Of a DNA stretch of 63,059 nt, positions 41,664 to 60,391 are shown one piece after another. The stretch covers positions 1 through 63,059 of the forward strand of contig MEDY01000291.1 of assembly GCA_001724265.1 (NCBI GenBank), read 5' to 3'. The stretch's first letter is position 1; the number at the start of each line of letters is the position of its first letter. The notes under the pieces were generated by a model. That model was not told the DNA's origin. It saw only the letters and a list, made by a program, of their open reading frames with translations, and ran no database searches. This DNA is from Rhizaria sp. SCN 62-66. Taxonomy: Eukaryota. The position numbers and the translations under genes are program-made.

Positions 41664-42253
41664 GCCACGTCTATAGCTGTTACAACAAGTACATATTTGG
41701 GCCTTTGTTAGTTTGGAGGATTGTTGGTGTTTTTAGCGCACTGCTATGAAGCAGGTGCGCATCGTTACCTATTATTTTAAAGTATATATTTCGAGTTTTA
41801 AGTTGGTGCCCGCGAGTTTTCGCGAATATATTTAACTGCCAGAAATTACACAGTTGCTGTAGTCGTCTGATTTATACACATACATGTTGCTTTACCACCG
41901 ATTTTTGCATCATTTGCGCATTTCACAGGGCTTTTTGTTACCGTTGAGATTGACAAGTCTTTCGACGTCGAGTGAGGTTCAACTTCATCCAAACAGAGTT
42001 CAATGCAGTATCCGTTAATTGTAGTGTGCGAGATAAATCCAATATTAATTAAGCACAATTCGCATGATATTCTTAATTCATTCTCATTGTACTTGATTGT
42101 TCCCTCCCATTCCCACTTTTCATTTCTACCGCCCCAACTTGGCTACCCAGCACGCTCCTGGCGCGCTCCCCCTTCAGTACCTCATTACAACAAGACTTCA
42201 AGCGCACAGAGAAGCACACACAGAGAGCCCCGCGGGCTTATTTTGAACCACAC

Positions 42254-42666
42254 ATGGCGAACCCTCTGACGGGTCTCGTGTGGACCGTGCTGCGGTGGCT
42301 GGCGCTGTGGCTGGGCATCCCGCTCGTCCTCATCGCCATCATCGGCTACTTCGTTCGCCTTAAGGGACTCACGGTCATGCGCTCGCTCCAACACGAAATT
42401 ATCAAGTCATCCCACGATGCCCCGCGGTTTGCCTTGCTTGCGGACCTAAACGCAGAGCTCAACCTCGACTCGGACGACCCCTCCATGTCCACAACGGGCT
42501 CTGCCTCATCTGCTGGTGGCGCCAACGGTTCCCACGGCCCACCAGTCTCGTTCTTCGCGTCATTGCGCGCGTTCATTGTCTCTGTGCTGTCGATGCTTGC
42601 GTTTCCCTGTCTTAGATACCGCCAGCGGCGCCAGCTCGCAGCGTCCGCGGCCGCCACGGCCGTCGC

Positions 42667-42701
<35 letters not shown>

Positions 42702-42856
42702 CCGCTGCTGCCGCCGCCGCCGCCGCCGCAGCCGCCGCCAGCCCCGCCGCGCTGGCGCACCGCATCGACGCCGTGGATCTGTCCGGCGCGCACTTGCTGT
42801 CGCGCCCGCAGTCGCTGTTCCTGCTGTCGGCGCTCACCGCCACGGCGCCCTCCGCT

Positions 42857-42897
<41 letters not shown>

Positions 42898-45800
42898 TGG
42901 AGCACCTGCAAGTGCGACTGCTCCCGGCGCCACTGCCGGCGCCGCTGCTGCGGCTGCTGCTGCTGCTGCGGGCAAGACCGCTGCGACCAGGGGGTCCAGG
43001 GAAACAACGACCGCTGTGAACGCCCTCACGGCGATGTACGCTCGCGACCCCACCGCCAACGCCAGCAACAGCCACGCCCTCGTGGTGGTGGGGCGCGGTT
43101 TGCGCGCAAATCAAGCTAAGGCCACGGGCGTCGCGAGCTACAGCCAGCCCAGAGACGCGGCCGCGGCGTGCGACGACCTCGACGACTTAACTTCCGCGGA
43201 GCTGCTGACGTCAGCGCTCGCCTGGGCCGCGGCCGCCGCCACCACGACGTCGACCGACATCTCAGCGGCCGATGCGGCGGCGACCGGCGCGGCGGCGGCC
43301 CCGGGCGCGGCCCAGGGCGTAGACGGCGTTGACGCCACTGATGCGTCAGTTGCTGCAGGCGCAGCTACGTCTAGTAAGCCTGTGCGGTCACTGCAGTCGA
43401 TGTTTGCGTTTTCCTACTTGTGCCAACAGCAACAACAGCAGCAGCAGTAGTCGCAGGCGCAGCCCGTGTCGCTGCCGTCGATGCCTCTGCTGTCGACGGC
43501 GGCCGCGGTTGCGGCTGCAACGACGGCCAACGCCACCGCGGCAGTGGCCGCCGCCACGGCCACCGCGGCCGCTGCTGCCTCTGCCGCCGCCTCGAGCTCT
43601 AGTTCTGCTGGCGCATTGAACTCTGCCAGTAAGATCAACATGGGAAGCTCAACCACTGGCTCTGGCGCGTCGAGCACAAGCTCCGCATCGATTGGCTTTG
43701 GTTCCGCTGCAGTCTCTAGCTCCTGCTCGGTGCAGTTCCTCGTTGCAGCCTCGACCGCAGCAGCAGCCACCGCTGCAGCCGCCGCTTCCGCTGCAGCCCC
43801 CGCTCAACCTACCGCTGCCGTCGCCCCTGTCGCGGTCGCCGCCGCCGCCGCTGCGACCGCCGCGTCCGCCGCCGCCGTCATTTCAGCCGCCTCCAGCGCC
43901 GCCGCCACCGCGAGCTCGAACACCAGTCTCAGTCTAAGTATCCCCGGCGCGGGTGTAAGTGCCCTGGACGAGTCGCGCGCGTTTGCGCTGGCGTGGGCCG
44001 GCGTGCCCGCGCGGCAGCGGCGGCGCTTGCTGCACCTGGCGGCGTGCGAACTTGCGCGGCGCTCCCGCCGCAGGGCCGCCTGCGCCGCCGTCGCCGCGCT
44101 CGTCGCGGCCGCGTCCCCACAGACAGCGGCGGCGGCAGGGTCTGCCAGCAGCACCGGGGGCCGCGCGGGCAAGCCCGGCGCCGCTGTTGCTGGGACTGCT
44201 GTTGCGCTCCCCAATGCCACGCACACCGCAGGCGGTGTAAACGCCGTGAACGCACACGGGCACGCGCACGGCGCGCACGGCGCGCACGGACACGCGGGCG
44301 CTGGTGCAACTGCAGCGACGACGGCCGCCGCGGCCGCGGCCGCCGCTGCGAACGTCGCGGCCGCGGCCGCTGCCGCTGCCGCTGCGGCTGCGGCGCGCGC
44401 CGTGCCCACGAGCTCGGGGCTCGGAGTGCTGCAGTCGCTCGCCACCGTGAGCCTGAGCGATTGCGAGTCGATGGACGAGTGTTCTGACAGCGACGACGAC
44501 GACGGGGCGCGCGCGGGCTCGGACGACGCTTTGGACAACAGTCGCAACTGGGGGAGCGAGGTGATGAGCGCGAGCAGGTCGACCAGCAGCTACGGCACCG
44601 CTATGCCGGGTTTCGGCCCGCGCCAGCGGAGTGTTCCGACCGCGAGCAGCGGCGCAGCAAGCGCAGGGCAGCCGCAGCACGGAGGCGGGGTGAACCGCGT
44701 GCGCAGCTCAGACCTCGCGTGGGCGCTCACTCTCGCGGCGCGCTTGCACTCTCAGGCGAACGCAAGCTCGAGTAGCACGAGTTCGCCGGCGCAGCCGTTT
44801 GGAGACAGCGAACAGCAGAGGCTGCGGCGCGCTCGCCGTGCGCGCAACGCGGTCACTAACAATAACATCAATTCGACTCCTTACACCGAGAATGGTGCCG
44901 TTGAGAATCAGCGCAACAGCAGTGACGCGCTCTCAGCGCGCGCAGCCACCGCGGCCGCACTTCTGTCCCTGTCTGCGTCTCTGCCCGAGGAGACGTTTGC
45001 AGCACTTGCAGCGGCGCTCGCTACAAGCTCTGCGCAACCGTTTAGTCTCAGCCCAAATGCTGATGACGGCGACAGCTATTCGACGGAATTGAGCTACTCG
45101 ACCGCCAGCGCGAGCAATGACGCCGCGGATACCTGTGTTGCTGGTGCTGGAGCTGTTGGCGCCAATGGTAGTATTGTCTCGCACTGGAGTCTGCTTCACC
45201 GGCTCGCCTATGCGAACTCGTACGCACTTTATACCGGCAACACCAACGCCACCGACATGATGACCAACAGCATTGACAGTAGCCTCGGCGTGAACTCCGG
45301 ATTTGTCAGTTCTATCCCCACAGTGACACATACGATGCCGCAGTTCCCACTCCCTGTTCCTGTCACTGCTGCTACTGTTGGTGCGGGCAACCCTGCTGCT
45401 AAGGACCGATACACCGCGGCCATCTCCGCCGCCCGCGCCCTTGCGCTTGGTTCTCTGGGCGCAACTACCGCCGGCGCTGTGCTGTCCGCTGTGGATCCGC
45501 ACAACACCGCTGGGACAAGCGCCACCGAGCAAGGCATTGTGAGCATGACCGGCGCGGGCTCAGCGGTCTCCGGCGCGTTCCCCTCCCTGCTGTCGTTGGT
45601 TGATCTCTGCTGCAACGCGCCTCCCGCTGCTGCGCTGAACGCCGACTCAGCAGACGCGAGCGCAAGTGCCTCTGGAACTCACGGCGGCGCGTCCCCGATG
45701 CAGGCCGCGTTGCTGGCGCTGATCATCGCCGAGGCGCAGAGCACGGGCGCGATCAGCAGCATCGAACGCAGTCTGTTGATTCGCAGGCTCAAGCTCCTCG

Positions 45801-48277
45801 CGACTTCCGCTGCGACGAACGCCAGCACGAGCTCGACGATCGCGACTAACGCGAGGAGCAGCGCTGGCTCCATGGGCGCTGACGTTGCGTACACGCAGGT
45901 TCATCTGCACTCACAGTTGCCGCTGCAGTCGCAGTTGCCGTTGGGCTCAGGTGTTCTGTCCAGTAACACCACCGTCAGCAGCGACAGCCTTCACCACGGT
46001 GTGAATACGAGCGCTGCATACGCGAACACTGCTCACAGTCTCCCCGCCTCTGCTGCTTTGGCTGCTTCACAAGATTCGAAGCCGTTCTACGACATTATCT
46101 TGTCCTTGATCGACACACAAGATGCTGTTTCTGCTGCGCAGGGCCGTGCCCGCGGCATGACTTTCCTGCAGGAGCGGCTTAACTTTCACCAGCGCGCATA
46201 CGAGGCCGACATGGCGCGCGCACGCCGCGAAGGCCGCCGCGCCCGCACCCGCGGGGGTCGCAAGGGCGCGAACGCGAGCTCCGCCGCGAGTCCGAGTCGC
46301 CCCAACCGCAGTCGCGCGGCCAGCAGTTCTGCTGTCGGTGCGGGTACTTACACCAATGGTGCGGGTACTTATACCGGTGTAAGCGGCCGGGTTGACACGC
46401 GTGGCCTCGGCGCCGTTGACGCGTTCGCGCTGGTGTTGGCCGACGTGGGCGTCGCGCCCCCGCGGCCGCCACTGCTGCCGCCGCCATCTGCAGGCGTTTC
46501 CCAGCCGCGCTCGACCTTCGCAGTGTCCGGGCCCAACGCCGATTACGGCAGTGGTGGTTCTGCCTGTGCTGGTGGCGATGCTTCGTTGGCACGGCCGTTC
46601 GTGTATCCGCACTCGGATTCCGACTTCCAGTCACAGTCCAAGTCGAGCCCGCAGTCGCTTGCGGTCACGTGTCCCTGCTGCGCGCACATCTTCCCTGTTG
46701 CGCCCGCCTCTGCCGCTGCGGTTTCCTCTCTTGCTGGCGCCAACGCCCGCGTGATTGCGAGGACCAACAGTCGCCGCCAGCGCCGCGGTCGCAGTTTGTT
46801 CAGGGGGTTTGCGCTTAAGACCAGCCCGATCTCTTCACTGAACAGTGCCACCTCGTCTCACGGCAACACACCGAACTTCAAGAGTGTCTACCGCGCTCTG
46901 GCAGTAAAGAGTAACAATAAGACTGTGTCAACTGCTCTGCGCGCTCTGCTGATGGGGGCCACTGTGGGATGCCCTGTCCCGCTGTGGAAGCGCTCTCTCA
47001 GCGGCCTAGCTTCTGACCTCAGCGGCGTAGCGCACAGTCGCTGTCGCGAGTGCGGGTGCGCTGGGGGCACGAGCGGTGGCGCGGCTGCGAGCGCGAGCGC
47101 CCTTGCGAGCGCAAGTTCACGCACAGTTGCCCGCGCGACTCCAAACAAGCCCCCCGCAGTGACCGCTGCCGACTGCGTCGGCAACACAAGCGCGGCTGCG
47201 GCCGACGCACGCGATCTTGTTCGCGTCGATAACGGGCTGAGCTTGCGCGAGCTGAGCGCGAAGTACCTGCGCACGCTGCCCGTCTCCGCGGTCCCACAGG
47301 AGAGCGCGTACACGCACGAGCTGGCGCAGTGGTACCGGCGCTCGCTGGCTAACGTGACCCGGCTCGTGCGTGTCATGCTCACGCGCAAAGAGAGGCTGGC
47401 GAAGCGCCAACCGCCGCCGCAGCAGGTCGAGGAGGACGGCACCCGCGAGGGCAGTGGCAAGATGAATACCAGCATCAAGCGGCGCGCTTTGACAGCAACA
47501 GCCCTGTCGCCCTCACATTCTCGGCGGAAGAGTAATGCGACGCAAAGCGCTGGCAGCACTGCGCCCGCCAGCCCTGTGAGTGCTGCGGCTGGCGCCACGG
47601 TGAACAAGAACAAGAAGGGCCTGAAGGCGCGGAGCAACAGCCACATGAGCAGCAGTGATGACGTGAACTCCGACACCGGCGGCTTCATTGCCAGCTTGAA
47701 TGGCAACTTGAACGGCAACCTAAACGGCAACACAGACGCGGGCGTCGCACTGGCGCACACGCGCAGCTACAGCACCCACAGCCACAGCCAGAGCCACATT
47801 CCGAGTCCGAGTCCGAGCGAGAGCGTCAGCCGCAGCCTCCGCCACGGCCACAGCCACGGCCTGAGCCGCCCCAGCAGCAGTAGTCGCAGCCTCACCGCGA
47901 CCCACAGCCGCAGCCCCAGCCAGACGCATCTCTACCCAGTCACTGGCGCTGGCGCTGGCACTGGCGCTGGCGCTGGCACTGCTGGTGCGAGGAAGGGGCT
48001 TGGCAGCGACAGCGAGGAGAGCTATGAGATCAAGAGCTCGAGCCGCAGGGGCCGTGGGAGCGGCAGTCGCACCAGTAAGGACTATGATGGCGCCGACTCC
48101 GACGCGGACGATAATGACGACAACGATGACTATGATGATGAGGAGGAGTACGACGACGCTGGCGATCACAGCGATGGCCGTGGCTCTGACGAAGATGATT
48201 CTGCGCTGGACGAGGATGAGGACGAGGACGAAGAGGGCGAGGCTGAGATGCTTGCCAGGAGTCTCTATTATCCTTAA
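42254..48277 (+). CDS. Large Ala/Ser-rich protein of unknown function with N-terminal TM helix; 2007 aa if the in-frame TAG at 43448 is decoded
   Basis: ORFs 42254-43450 and 43466-48277 share a frame and are separated only by a TAG ending a poly-Gln run. There is no AT-rich intergenic or intron-like gap. Hydrophobic N-terminus (LVWTVLRWLALWLGIPLVLIAIIGYFV) and acidic C-terminus. Stop is TAA. Confidence 0.7.
42663..42897 (+). repeat. Two (GCC)n poly-Ala tracts
   Basis: GCC-rich runs at ~42663-42739 and ~42859-42897. Confidence 0.9.
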
Positions 48278-54814: not shown

Positions 54815-57800
54815 TCATTGCTTCTCAACCGACTCCACCGCCGCCCTGACCGCGACGAGCTCGTCCGCGTGCGCCATGCCGCTGCGCAGCGCGCGCAGCA
54901 GAGTCACCAGACAGGTCTTGTTGGCCATATCGCGGCAGACGCGGTGCACGAGGTTGAGCTGGCCAATGACGCCCTTCGTGGCCCCAGTCCCGCTCTCGCT
55001 CTGCGCAGCTTCAGTGTCGTCCGGAGCCTCTGCGAGAGCAAGTGTGTACCCGTCAAACTGCTCGACGGGCCCGCTGATCGCGCGCAGCACTTGCTTCTCC
55101 ACCGCAGCCACACTGCGCACGGCGTCATTGCACCTCATCCGCGATGCAAGCGGCTTGTCGCTGTTGTCGCCGCCGCTGTTGCTGTTAGCGTTGCTCCCGC
55201 TGCTGTCGTTGCCCTTGCTCCCAGGCTAGGAGACCCAGCGCCAAAGCCCGAGGCGCAGCAGCGGCGCCAGCAGCAGCGCGAGCAGCGGCGACGGCCGGCT
55301 GGGCCGACCGGGACCGCTGGCGCACGCAATGGTGGAGATGCAGGGACTGTGCGGCGGGTGCAGCGTGAAGTTCAGCCGCACGAGGTGCTTCGCGCGCAGA
55401 CGAAGTGCTTCAGACAGAGGGACAACAGCCCCGTCATCGGTGGTAATGGAATCATCACTCGTGCTCTTCTTACACTCATCCTCACCGCCATCGCCGTTGC
55501 TAACGCGCTCAGTGTGGCGCTTCACTAGCTCCACGACCGCCATCGCCTTGTCCGCCGTCATATTTTTCTCCCGCCGCAAGTACGCCTCAAAGCCGCACGC
55601 GTCAGCCAGCGCGGCCACGGTCTGCGCCGCCTGCTCCGCGCGCGCCGTCAGCATGAGCGCGGCCGACTCGGCCACGGCCGTCAGCAGCGGGTTTTCTGCG
55701 TAGCCCATGCCCGTCTTGGTGTGCGCGTAGAAGTCGCGCACCGACTGCAGCGCGTCGATCTCCTCGTCGCTCAGGCCGCGCAAACTCTGCAGCGCGGCGG
55801 CGTTGGGCGGGACGCAGGTGTTAGGCGTGCCTGAGAACTTGTGCGTGGCCTGAATGCGGGCGTACTCGACGACGGCGGCCGCGGAGAGGCCCGCAAGCCG
55901 CTTCCGCAGCGTGAGCGAGCGCGGGTTCAGCAGCGCTGTCGCGCCCAGCGCCAGCATAAGCCGGCACAGCGCCGGGTCGGGCCCGCTGGCCGAGAGCAGC
56001 AGCAGCGCCTGGCGGACCGCGGGCCACTCGCGCGGGTGTCTGCGCTCAAGTGCGGCCGCCAGCGCGCTGTCGCTCCTACTACTGGGAGCGTGAGCGTTAT
56101 AGCTACAGACAGGGCCGTCAGGCTCGTCGTTGCTCTCCGCGAGTGCTTGCAGGAGGCCGCGCACGCACGCCGCCGTGGCACCGGGCGCCCAGGCGCCGCG
56201 CGGGCCGCGCAGCGCGCCGGCCGTGGCCACCAGCACCACGTCGAGCAGCGTCGGCGGGGCGTCCGGCGACGAGCCCTGCTTCGCCACGAACGGAGCGTTG
56301 TTGCGCGTGGCGGCAAGCGCCGCGGTCACAATGCGGCTGCGCGCGCGCAAAACGGCACTGGAGCTCTCCGCCTCACGCTGCCGGTTGATAGAGCGTTCGC
56401 GCGCAGACTCGAGGCGCTGCTGCGCAACGCTGACGTGTGCCGCGAGCGCGAGGTCGAGCGCGGGCGAGACGGGCAGCGAGAACACACCCTCGTTGTCGTC
56501 GCAGTCGCTGTCATCGTTAAACTCAGCGTTGTTGCACTCAACGGACTCTTTGTCGAGGCCTCGGTACTCGCTCAGGTCAATGGCATGGGAAATTTCTTTC
56601 TTGGACTCCTCCTTGGGAGTGTTGCGCACGAGATACTCAAAAATCACCTTCGACGTATGCGGCAAACGCGCATTCACAGCAGGAAAGAGATAGTTCGTGA
56701 CGCGACGACGCTGATCCACGCTCAAACCCACGTTGCCCGTCGCGGGGCCGTGGCCCAGGTCGTCGAGCACGCGCATCAGCAGCCCCGCCAACGCAATGTC
56801 GTTTGCGTTACCCGCCGCGCTGCAGTGCGGAAAGCACGGGAACTGCGCGCTCGGCACGGCGTGACACTGCGGGCAGGGCGGCTTGACTTCCTTCGCGCCG
56901 ACGGCGGGCGGGAGACTTAGCGCGAGGTTGCGGCGGCGGACGCGCGCGCCGTGCACCGCCGGGGCGGGGCGCGGGGGCAGCGCGGGCAGCGCAGCAGCGC
57001 GCACACTGGCGACGGGGTCGTTGTCGTCGTTCGCGGCGGCCGAGTTGCCGGAAAGCGACGATGACTCGCCCGCCGTGTGGTTGTCTTGGCTCCGAGCGCG
57101 CACCGGCCAGAGCGAAAAGGCCGTGGTGATCGCGTCGTGGTCATTCCACGAGTACGTGTCCTCCCGGGTGTACGCGCTGCCCCTCTCCGCTGCCGCAGCC
57201 GCCGCAGCGTCGTCCCCGCCGTCGCCGTCGCCGTCGTCGTCGAGGTCTAAAGCGCCGCCGCCGCCTGCACCGCCCAGCACGGGCTGCGGGCCGTAGCAGC
57301 TCTTGCTCGCCCATTCGAGCAGCAGCCCCACGCACGTGAGCGCGGGGTCCATGCGCAGCGCGAAGGCGTCGGGCTGCAGCAGCGCGTGCAGCTCCCAGTG
57401 CGCGAGCGAGCCCGCCGAGTAGGACACGTGGAGCCGTGCCTGATCGTGGCACTGCCCCGCTAGGAGCGGCAGCGCGCCGACGCTGCGTGGACGCGGGGAG
57501 AGCTTCTTCAGGGGCACCGAGTCCGCACTCGCCTTACTGTCGGTCGCATCATAACTAGAGATGGAGTTGGAGACGGCACTCGGCGCAGTGTTGCTGGGCC
57601 TAACGGTGAGCGTCGGCGGCGCCCCCCCCGGAGTGACAACAGCGTCAAACCCCACGTACATGCTGGGAGCGTACCGCACACTGACCCCGTGCTGATATCG
57701 CGAGCTCCCGCTCCCGGCCGCGCTTGCACTCGCTTGCGCACGCGCAGCGCTACCCGGGCCGCCGGACTGCGCGCCGTGCTAGCCCGCCTCCGCCAGCTCG

Positions 57801-59731
57801 CTGAGATTAACCCGCCCGGTCAGCACGTCGTCAAACAGGACGTCGCGGTCGTCCTCGTCGGCGGCCGCGAACAGCAGGTCGCGCACCACGGCGCGCGTGT
57901 CCCCGTCCAGCGCGCGCATCTGGTCCAGCGACGGCAGCTCCAGCCGCTCAAGCAGCAAGTTCACGCTCGCGTACGCGTCGCGACAACGCTGGGAGCCGAA
58001 GTAAGTGTAGTAGCCATTGAGCGCGGGCGGCGCCGCCAACAGCCGCCGAGCCTCCCGGTCCCCCGCGTGCCGTTCCCAGTCGAACCCCGTGCCCGCGCCC
58101 GCCTCGTCATTATGGCGCTGCGGTGGGTGCACGAGCCGCGCGGCGCCCTGCCACGCGGCGCGCCTGCCGTCCCAGGCGACGGCGACGGCGAGCAGCGCGC
58201 GCTCGCCGAACGCCAGCGCGGTCTGCCGGCACCCCACAGCAGGCTCCGCGGCCGCGTACGGGTACGAGCTGCGGTTGTACGGGTCCAGCGGGTCGCCATG
58301 GCCGTAGCGCCCCACCGCGGGCCGCGCGAGACTGGACGCGGAGGAGGCGCCGGGCGCGGGGCGCGTGACGGGCGCGGTGGGCGGCCCCGTGCCGCAGTCG
58401 GCCGCCAGCGCGGGCGGGAGGTGCGCCAGGATCATGCTCTCGTAGCACGAGACCACGGCGTCGCGCGCGACCGAGGGCTCTGACGCGCGGTGGCCGGCTG
58501 CGACCTCGGCAAACAGCCGCGACAGCGCAGCCGCGGCGGGAGACGGCGCCGCGGAGGCCGCGGCGGACGCGTTGGGCAGTTGGGGGTCGGCGCTGTCGTG
58601 GACGCGGCGTAGTTCAGTCGCGTCAGGTTGGGGGGCGTTTTGGTTTCCAGCGCTAGTGCCCGCGTTGCCGTTGCCGTTGTTGCTGTTGCTGTTGCTGTTG
58701 TTGTTGCTGTTGAAGTTGCTGGCGGCCTTGCGCGCGGCGTCGTCGTGGTGCATCTTGAGGAGGTCGGCGACGGCGTCGGCCGCCATGAGCGAGCACAGGT
58801 AGGGAAAGCAGGCGCCGCCCGTGCCGCCGGCGGCGTTGGCAAGGATGAGCAGGCGCGCCACGTGCGGCGGCTGCTGGTAGTGGGCGAAAAGCAGCGCAGG
58901 CACCTCGGCGTCGTCCACGCTCGCCGCGACGAGCTCCTCGCCAGAGAGGGCGTGTGCGCTCACCGCGACGTCTCCGCCGCTGCCACTGCTGCTGCTGCTA
59001 ATGCTGCTGCCAGCAAGGCCGGCGGGGGCAGGGAGGAGCGCGAGCACGTGTTTGAGCAGCGCGGGGTCGCCGTTGGTGACGACGCACTTGACGAGCTGCT
59101 TGACGTGCACGGGCAGCGAGTGTGCCGTACCGCTGCGCACGCCCGCCGCCGCCGCCGGGTCCGCGGCAAGAAAGCGTACGACGGGGGCGTGGAACTCGGT
59201 CGCCGCGACGAAGAGCGGCGACGCAGGGTAGCTGGAGACCTTGTTGGGGCAGAGGTTGAGCGCGGCCCAGAGCTGCGGCGAGAGCGCCTGCTTCAGCATG
59301 CGCACGGCGGCCAGGTTGCCCAGCTGCGCGGCGCACGAGACCGGCAAGCGGTGCAGCGTCGTAACGGCGTCACCGCAGCGGGCGAGGATGAACCTGAGCG
59401 CGTTGTAGTAGTGGCGGCCGATGCAGAGCGAGAGGATGTCTGAGATCTCGGTGCTCTCGACGGTGCTTGTCACCAGCACCAGGCACGCGGCGAACCCGGC
59501 GGCCTCCGACGGACTCAGTGTGGCCCGACCATAAGTGCCGGTCGCCACCGGCTGCTGCTGTGCGTCACCGCCGTCGCCGCTGTCGGTCTGCGGGACGTTG
59601 AACGGGACGTTGAGGAAGGCGGCGTGGACAGCGCGCAGTCCCGCGAGCATGGCGTCGTCGGAGCTGACGTCCAGCGTGGCGCGGAAGTTGCGCGCGCCGC
59701 GCACAAAGATAACGTCCTCGTTCAGACTCAT
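54815..59731 (-). CDS. Large protein with degenerate N-terminal ankyrin-like repeats; 1638 aa if the in-frame TAGs at 57779 and 55226 are decoded
   Basis: ORFs 59731-57779, 57679-55226 and 55138-54815 all share one frame. Each junction is a single TAG with GC-rich open coding sequence on both sides. Ankyrin-like segments PVSCAAQLGNLAAVRML and SPLFVAATEFHAPVVRFL. Final stop is TGA, followed by AT-rich sequence. Confidence 0.7.
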
Positions 59732-60391
59732 GACCGACGTTGAGTGGCGTTTTAGCAGATCAGCAGATGGGTGCGGCGTGGTAAGGTGCGAAGTGCGTTT
59801 GCGAAAGTGATGCAGAAAGCTCCAGTCGAGTCTAGACTTAAATCGAGAATACCGAGTTGTAAATAACTGTTAGGCAATTTACTGTTTAATAGTCATACCG
59901 ATTACAAAGTTAAACGCGCAAAAACCAAGTATTATCACGATTCACGTTGTAAACAACACGTACAACATGAAGATAGTTTGCCGAAAGCGGGGGCTATGAC
60001 TCTCCACCACAAACGCGTTATGTTGCACAACAGTCTGCTTTAGTCAACATTAGAGCGATAAATAAGTCGGTAAAGGTTTAAACTAAAGGCATTTAGAAAA
60101 AGCGGCGGATATTATACGATATGCATGGTTGTTTTGATCTTAAAAATGATTGTTTATGTATGTTTTGTTGTTTTCGCGCGGCACAGCCCGTCTCTCCTCT
60201 CTTGGCTCAGTCACTGCAACACAGCACCGGCACGATGATATTCACAGAATGCAATATCACGCCACAGAAGAGTTTCCAAGCCTATGGACTATACCATGCA
60301 CATGCTGCAAGGGTGCGACACTCACACTCTATGAACGCAGAGCGCACTCCCACGTCGAGAGTGCGTAACTGGCGGTTTGGGGGCGTCGGCC

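Follow-up and report, generated by a model that had tools for sequence, protein, structure and literature searches.

A probable new nuclear code variant with UAG alone as a sense codon for glutamate, or for glutamate and glutamine

Does a TAG codon within a long coding frame of this genome end the protein, or is it translated, and if so as which residue? The question is raised by a locus in contig MEDY01000291.1 (C291 in our numbering) of the 34.9 Mb, 714-contig eukaryotic assembly deposited as Rhizaria sp. SCN 62-66, a genome with GT-AG introns. The whole stretch of 63,059 nucleotides (nt) that was analysed is called the window below. On its forward strand, positions 43424-43462 read CAA CAG CAA CAA CAG CAG CAG CAG TAG TCG CAG GCG CAG, with the TAG at 43448-43450. 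Our analysis indicates that this TAG is almost certainly a sense codon, and the focal site is probably one instance of a new nuclear code variant in which UAG specifies glutamate (Glu), or Glu and glutamine (Gln), with UAA and UGA as stops.

The in-frame TAG at the focal site

A first inspection of the letters alone (hereafter the sequence-only reading) had described an in-frame TAG ending a poly-Gln run and followed by about 1600 further codons, and the sequence agrees with this description. When the TAG is read through, a 457-codon frame (42077-43450) joins a 1608-codon frame (43451-48277) in the same phase, which gives one open reading frame (ORF) with a TAA end. The predicted product has a hydrophobic N-terminal segment and is otherwise of low complexity and rich in Ala and Ser; searches with this protein found no Pfam family and no usable Atlas match. 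With two more in-frame TAGs in a second ORF of the window, the focal TAG is more than a chance occurrence. The features concerned are the following.

42254..48277, plus strand: long ORF, about 2007 codons counted from the first ATG, ending in TAA
43424..43447, plus strand: eight Gln codons (CAA/CAG)
43448..43450, plus strand: in-frame TAG acting as a sense codon, most probably for Glu, with Gln or a mixture as the alternatives (sequence, X2 contig, hidden Markov model)
48275..48277, plus strand: true stop TAA, followed by AT-richer non-coding sequence
54815..59869, minus strand: second long ORF, 1684 codons from stop to stop, with two in-frame TAGs and no Pfam family
57779..57781, minus strand: in-frame TAG of the second ORF (X2 contig and contig of the poly(A) RNA run X5)
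55226..55228, minus strand: in-frame TAG of the second ORF (X2 and X4 contigs, no difference)

Independent sequence data and splicing

A contig from run X2, which belongs to a different study from that of X1, the possible source run, covers 42978-43852 with 0 differences, and the TAG at 43448-43450 is therefore no assembly error. X2 contigs cover all three TAGs of the window without a difference. The TAG at 57779-57781 is also covered, with no difference or gap, by the X5 contig (57675-58057) of poly(A) RNA, a run that may hold DNA.

The focal TAG could still go untranslated, either as part of an intron or as the end of a 398-residue gene with the next gene starting 30 bases on; the genome-wide reassignment would be unaffected in both cases. 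A T-rich segment (43401-43423) precedes the Gln run, an ATG that could start a downstream gene is found at 43481, and among the RNA matches listed no contig crosses 43448. Against an intron stands the survey of candidates. The 112 introns inferred from the fetched loci measure 116-211 nt (5-95%) with a guanine plus cytosine (GC) content of 0.29-0.50. The TAG could be spliced out, with the frame preserved, by 160 GT..AG pairs, of which the most intron-like (lowest GC) is 69 nt long with a GC of 0.52, the focal TAG serving as its acceptor after the row of CAGs. The donor-like GTAAGC at 43374 is out of phase, and a hidden Markov model (HMM) trained on the genome kept the focal frame with a posterior of at least 0.99 over 43201-43620. 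Donor and AG-exclusion statistics are circular, being partly built into the way introns were picked, and were not counted as evidence. By the candidate survey and the HMM the splicing out of the focal TAG is unlikely; the sequence-only reading had noted that the T-rich, slightly acceptor-like stretch lies upstream of the TAG. The split gene is opposed by the called gene ends described below, where TAG occurs in 0 of 53. We consider a local intron or split gene very improbable.

TAG as a sense codon throughout the genome

Stop codons were counted with the HMM, which gives the three stops the same penalty, in a sample of about 1 Mb of the 34.9 Mb. Across all loci of this genome, many of which had been fetched because of a TAG, the internal stops were TAG 52, TAA 0 and TGA 0, which upholds the earlier claim that the codon is translated. 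The gene ends were TAA 43, TGA 32 and TAG 2, and the two TAG ends looked doubtful on inspection by eye. The loci not fetched for a TAG, a set that includes the window and its 3 TAGs, gave internal counts of TAG 7, TAA 0 and TGA 0, and ends of TAA 29, TGA 24 and TAG 0 (n = 53). In-frame UAGs were present in intact conserved genes, namely those for eRF1, kinases, PDI, ASCC3, an AAA protein and a Cdc25-like protein.

The codon is nevertheless very rare. Among 114,302 codons we counted TAG 7, ATA 23, AGA 34, GAA 584, GAG 5666 and CAG 4246, so that TAG, at 0.06 per 1000 codons, is the rarest sense codon of those counted. Inspection by eye of 10 dynein heavy chain genes showed no in-frame TAG in their coding exons, and searches of the kinesin, AAA, ABC and DEAD families yielded none within the domains that could be used. 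What the dynein, kinesin, AAA, ABC and DEAD searches flagged were intron acceptors by eye, and the same held for four of the nine kinase matches that had only a TAG. In some genes the in-frame TAGs cluster, with three or four per locus (L288, L264, L307 and L354, one of them Cdc25-like), and the dynein and kinesin domains have none. This clustering, set against the absence from dynein and kinesin, suggests a link to low expression.

Under the standard code, all of these in-frame TAGs would be nonsense mutations, parts of pseudogenes or sites of programmed low-level readthrough. Rarity in coding sequence and clustering in some genes would fit such a view. It has to account for 52 internal TAGs beside 0 TAA and 0 TGA, for identical TAGs in independent data, for a cognate tRNA gene with a CUA anticodon, and for the only eRF1 found, whose N-domain is interrupted by a TAG. 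We give the standard code next to no credence.

The CUA tRNA and the release factor

The two loci on which the decoding of UAG would depend are:

G000:C84:76008-76080: tRNA with CUA anticodon (RF00005, 58 bits), followed by a T run
L034:1594-1596 (G000:C63:103463-103465), minus strand: in-frame TAG of the eRF1 gene, in the N-domain at human position 107

A pattern search and a DNA search of the genome found the CUA tRNA in a single copy, on a contig with ordinary genes for kinase and kinesin proteins; copies that contain an intron or were not assembled would escape the search, and an assembly of 714 contigs may lack genes. Compared with 16 tRNAs of the same genome, it was most similar to tRNA-Glu(CUC), with 47 of 73 positions identical (64%), followed by tRNA-Glu(UUC) and tRNA-His (59% each). 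Its identity to the tRNA-Gln genes was lower, at 45% (33 matches) for Gln(CUG) and 39% for Gln(UUG). It has acceptor pairs 1-5 in common with both Glu tRNAs, the T stem with Glu(CUC) and G73 with Glu(UUC). The tRNA carries U11-A24, U13-G22 and A46 and lacks base 47, features given as Glu determinants of Escherichia coli (PMC9976931). It is 73 nt long, with a 4-nt variable loop and no long variable arm of the kind expected for leucine (Leu). Judged by these similarities, the CUA tRNA derives from tRNA-Glu and not from tRNA-Gln. We infer that it is expressed and charged with Glu. In published work (PMC12204705), a human tRNA-Glu engineered to CUA inserted about 95% Glu; with a suppressor tRNA-Glu of E. 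coli, Glu made up 59% and Gln 17%. ARAGORN labelled the gene tRNA-Pyl, a label that stems from the anticodon alone and was set aside, the body being Glu-like.

No intron-less CUA copy of the genome's own tRNA-Gln(CUG) was found, though the CUA pattern should match one, and there are at least four distinct tRNA-Gln(CUG) genes for one CUA gene. In the search for tRNA-Glu genes two patterns found nothing and a third found Glu(UUC). The two tRNA-Gln isoacceptors (L019:1501-1573 and L020:1190-1261) are strongly unlike each other, as are the two tRNA-Glu isoacceptors.

The release-factor search (PF03463) gave eRF1 on C63 and one other match, on C34, which is Pelota-like by eye. The TAG in the eRF1 gene is also present in an independent metagenome contig (L167). 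In eRF1, NIKS and YxCxxxF are intact, and four residues (human numbering) differ from nearly all homologues, namely T32S, G57S, T58K and K130Q. T32S and G57S are unlike all 117 homologues; T58K is unlike 116 of the 117, the exception being the closest relative, P0006 (84% identical), which shares T58K and not T32S. According to PMC5304391, T32 touches the G of UAG and is altered in Iotanema (T32G). The changes near the stop-recognition motifs here probably weaken the recognition of UAG. Since the gene carries an in-frame TAG, the cell, if this is the sole copy, could not produce its release factor without reading UAG. An eRF1 autoregulatory circuit acting via readthrough has reportedly been described in plants, and that the UAG of eRF1 serves here as a negative feedback device is speculation on our part. 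A metagenome scan for the eRF1 locus of a sister species gave only one identical contig and homologues of at most 71% identity.

Identity of the inserted residue

The sequence-only reading had favoured Gln over Leu. Its rejection of Leu stands: summed over 7 homologue columns, the scores were Glu +3.9, Gln +2.0 and Leu -17.0, and on these columns UAG = Leu is excluded. Its choice of Gln is countered by the Glu-derived tRNA and by a TAG within a poly-Glu run, found in one of two genome-wide matches to a GAR-run pattern; several more TAGs lie in stretches rich in Asp and Glu. A few individual columns also point to Glu. At the eRF1 site, 106 of the 117 homologues have Glu, 10 Asp, 1 Val and 0 Gln. 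The TAG of the AAA domain faces Glu in three of four distinct domains that cover the site (Glu over Gln by +2.7 bits), that of the Cdc25-like gene aligns to Glu in Cdc25B/C, and that of PDI aligns to Asp, Glu or Asn in the clearly aligned domains.

The poly-Gln context itself is less telling than it seemed. It had been argued that a CAG-to-TAG change in a Gln homopolymer implies synonymy, and an in-frame TAG in a poly-Gln run was found at a second locus (L118). In this genome, 103 of 473 centres of the motif QQQ.Q are not Gln codons, so the poly-Gln context is not diagnostic and the argument for Gln does not hold. A CAR-run pattern with 555 matches gave no rate: most were out-of-frame poly-Ser, and among 30 loci extracted a single one had a TAG in frame within poly-Gln. 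Many matches to CTAG patterns that seemed to be in frame were antisense or shifted, and only scored in-frame sites were kept. Pfam searches of three more TAG regions gave no match, and PDB searches for L292 and the CIMR-like L311 were uninformative.

A number of results weigh against Glu as the sole residue. The Glu margin over the 7 columns is small (3.9 versus 2.0 for Gln), and in eight Pfam scores Glu and Gln differ by only -0.1 to +0.7 bits. The single Val at the eRF1 column belongs to P0006, so the column is relaxed in the lineage. The ASCC3 column, Glu-like in Brr2, proved variable (Asn 35, Lys 18, Gln 13, Glu 11 of 120) and was dropped as uninformative. At the TAG of kinase L038, Gln is present in an 81% identical orthologue and in the two nearest homologues (column of 120: Gln 29, Lys 26, Glu 7). 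Another kinase TAG aligns to Gln in NEK1, TAGs also lie in Gln-rich runs, a 63% identical relative has Gln at the TAG of the DUF445 gene (column of 148: Arg 42, Glu 30, Lys 17, Val 13, Gln 10), and two TAGs of a ubiquitin-like gene face Gln in its own paralogue or repeat copies. Thus the closest homologues have Gln at five TAG sites, none of them an invariant column. For the neighbours of 52 TAGs, the Glu-minus-Gln score was -4.4, with +17 ± 5.5 expected for Glu and -46 ± 13 for Gln, and the neighbour-context model rejects both pure Glu and pure Gln.

Models in which the TAGs are a mixture of origins by fresh mutation, when restricted to one site from each of 48 loci, gave Glu an advantage of 0.8 to 6.3 log units over Gln. 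When all 68 sites were used, the margin of Glu over Gln ranged from -1.2 to +4.2 log units, a further point against Glu alone. Mixed and pure-Glu models were inseparable (-3.4 to +4.3 log units), and the best two-class fits gave Glu-like shares of 0.50 (52 sites), 0.59 (68 sites) and 0.73 (48 loci). These models assume mutation and acceptance rates, many of the sites come from patterns containing TAG, and 12 regions were accepted by hand. A 'pure equilibrium' likelihood (-228) was driven by a density tail and was not used.

Decoding of UAG as Glu, as Gln or as both

The best explanation in our view, which we put at about an even chance, is that UAG means Glu, with UAA and UGA as stops. The nuclear code would have reassigned UAG alone, UAA and UGA still terminating. 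The single-copy CUA tRNA, built on a tRNA-Glu body and mainly charged with Glu, would decode UAG, and the altered eRF1 (T32S, G57S, T58K) would compete less at this codon, the causal role of the three changes being our inference. Decoding that is costly, or a change that is incomplete, would keep UAG very rare and at exchangeable surface positions. The TAGs at former Gln positions, the focal site included, would be CAG-to-TAG changes tolerated as Gln-to-Glu substitutions.

A competing possibility, which we hold to be clearly less probable than Glu alone, is that UAG is ambiguous, with the Glu-derived CUA tRNA competing with near-cognate tRNA-Gln(CUG), or with both synthetases charging the CUA tRNA. 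eRF1 would then still terminate at some UAGs, and the codon would be kept rare and at positions that accept either residue. The homologue evidence, divided about evenly between Glu and Gln sites, and the intermediate Glu-like shares of the two-class fits are in line with this, as is the excess of tRNA-Gln(CUG) genes. The low frequency of TAG, 7 in 114,302 codons and none in the 10 dynein genes, resembles that of the dual-coded CUG in Ascoidea asiatica (PMC6041473). Identities of only 64% and 59% to the Glu tRNAs of the genome, as if the CUA tRNA had long been separate, argue against a fresh non-equilibrium state. Near-cognate reading in yeast puts Gln, Tyr or Lys at UAG (PMC4150775), and the 17% Gln of the E. 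coli tRNA-Glu suppressor mentioned above likewise favours an admixture of Gln. Only one CUA tRNA was found, the mixed and pure-Glu models are inseparable, and the Gln sites are accounted for, with no need of dual decoding, by recent CAG-to-TAG mutation in young repeats and duplicated sequences, all of which speak against ambiguity. A cognate tRNA normally outcompetes near-cognate ones, which also counts against it.

A more specific form of the same idea, and a slightly more doubtful one, is that UAG is stably ambiguous, read as Glu by tRNA-Glu(CUA) and as Gln by a near-cognate or mischarged tRNA, against a weakened eRF1 held in a feedback loop by the UAG of its own messenger RNA. If true, nature would offer here a lasting 'ambiguous intermediate' on the way from stop codon to sense codon, in which readthrough sets the level of the release factor.

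That UAG means Gln only seems improbable. The Glu-derived tRNA would have switched identity, or a Gln-derived CUA tRNA would be missing from the assembly, which with its 714 contigs may lack genes. The TAGs in poly-Gln at the focal site and L118, the five sites with Gln in close homologues, and the existence of codes that assign UAG alone to Gln (PMC5304391 and PMC11687900) are in its favour. It is contradicted by the Glu-like CUA tRNA and the lack of an intron-less Gln-type CUA copy in the searches, by 0 Gln of 117 at the eRF1 column, by the TAGs in acidic runs and the rejection of a pure-Gln context, and by the one-per-locus models, which prefer Glu.

The organism and other features of the genome

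Placement in Rhizaria is no more than a lead. The best named kinase match was Plasmodiophora (58%), a quick kinase tree gave no resolution, and flagellar-type dyneins are present. The runs that held half or more of the stretch are labelled as bioreactor or wastewater metagenomes, with one unlabelled; runs X6-X9 had small word shares and were not used as evidence of habitat. The genome of Rosculus vilicus has a GC content of 37.7%. Three database proteins, P0006 (the eRF1 relative), P0123 and P0380, which are 84%, 81% and 63% identical to proteins of this organism, point to sister lineages. Gene callers that assume the standard code shorten genes such as those described here, and one database protein of the same organism (P0281) stops at the TAG.

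Other genes of the window, between 12103 and 49818, encode a protein with a PTEN_C2 domain, a metallophosphoesterase, a heme peroxidase, a thiolase, a formate-tetrahydrofolate ligase, an alpha/beta hydrolase and a thioredoxin; 13 of the 20 window ORFs scanned had no Pfam family. Elsewhere in the genome, the 18S rRNA gene (L088:1501-5945; G000:C706:4459-8903) is 4.4 kb long, very divergent and rich in AT; several large insertions in it resemble group I introns on inspection by eye. Ubiquitin (L163, L166, L371, L373, L374) is unusually divergent and starts with Met-Ser-Met, and some stand-alone copies end in a tail of three residues. A number of copies are found at the ends of contigs, and the assembly contains no polyubiquitin junction. 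At L165:826-2085 (G000:C681) a ubiquitin-like domain is fused to Peptidase_S74 and a repeated unknown domain that also occurs in L282, and this gene has two in-frame TAGs.

Comparison with known codes

Nuclear codes that split UAG from UAA are known from few lineages. In the papers examined (PMC5304391, PMC11687900), UAG alone is read as Leu in exLh and in TARA ciliates, and as Gln in Iotanema, Hartmannula and Trochilia. The present case resembles the exLh, Iotanema and phyllopharyngean codes in that UAG is sense and UAA a stop (UGA is a stop also in exLh), and in that a CUA tRNA is predicted or found; eRF1 is altered at the same position in Iotanema (T32G) and here (T32S). It differs in the residue, which here is Glu or Glu/Gln, in a tRNA that is Glu-derived, and in its GC-rich coding sequence. 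Specifically, it lacks the Leu columns and the long variable arm that would go with the Leu codes, and its CUA tRNA is not Gln-derived, unlike in the Gln codes. The use of UAG differs as well, with 384 UAGs in 71 genes of exLh and wide use in the ciliates, compared with 0.06 per 1000 codons here.

The literature searched, which left most subscription papers outside, contained no nuclear code with UAG alone as Glu and no rhizarian or wastewater case, and a term search in the text of two recent rhizarian papers (PMC12930898, PMC13746701) gave no mention of a variant nuclear code. A code that reads UAG as Glu and keeps both UAA and UGA for termination would, if real, add an entry to the table of codes, in a GC-rich, non-ciliate protist of bioreactor and wastewater samples. 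With the tRNA and eRF1 in hand, and with other disfavoured synonymous codons used about a hundred times more often than UAG, the reassignment may have been caught part-way, which would make the question of codon capture versus ambiguous intermediate directly testable.

UAG is read as Glu in Oligohymenophorea sp. PL0344, where UAA is Lys (PMC10553269), in Blastocrithidia, where UAR is Glu and UGA is Trp (PMC12153298), and in peritrich ciliates, where UAR is Glu. All three have a CUA tRNA derived from tRNA-Glu, as here, and in Blastocrithidia the reassigned codons are avoided in highly expressed genes, a further likeness. In all three UAA is also a sense codon, whereas here it is the commonest stop and was internal 0 times. 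The nearest parallel to a mixed reading is the stochastically decoded CUG codon of Ascoidea asiatica (PMC6041473), which is likewise rare and largely kept away from conserved positions, and for which the homologues are also divided between two residues. In Ascoidea the competition, demonstrated by proteomics, is between two tRNAs that share an anticodon and serve a sense codon; here the searches gave a single CUA tRNA for a codon that used to be a stop, and dual decoding is hypothetical.

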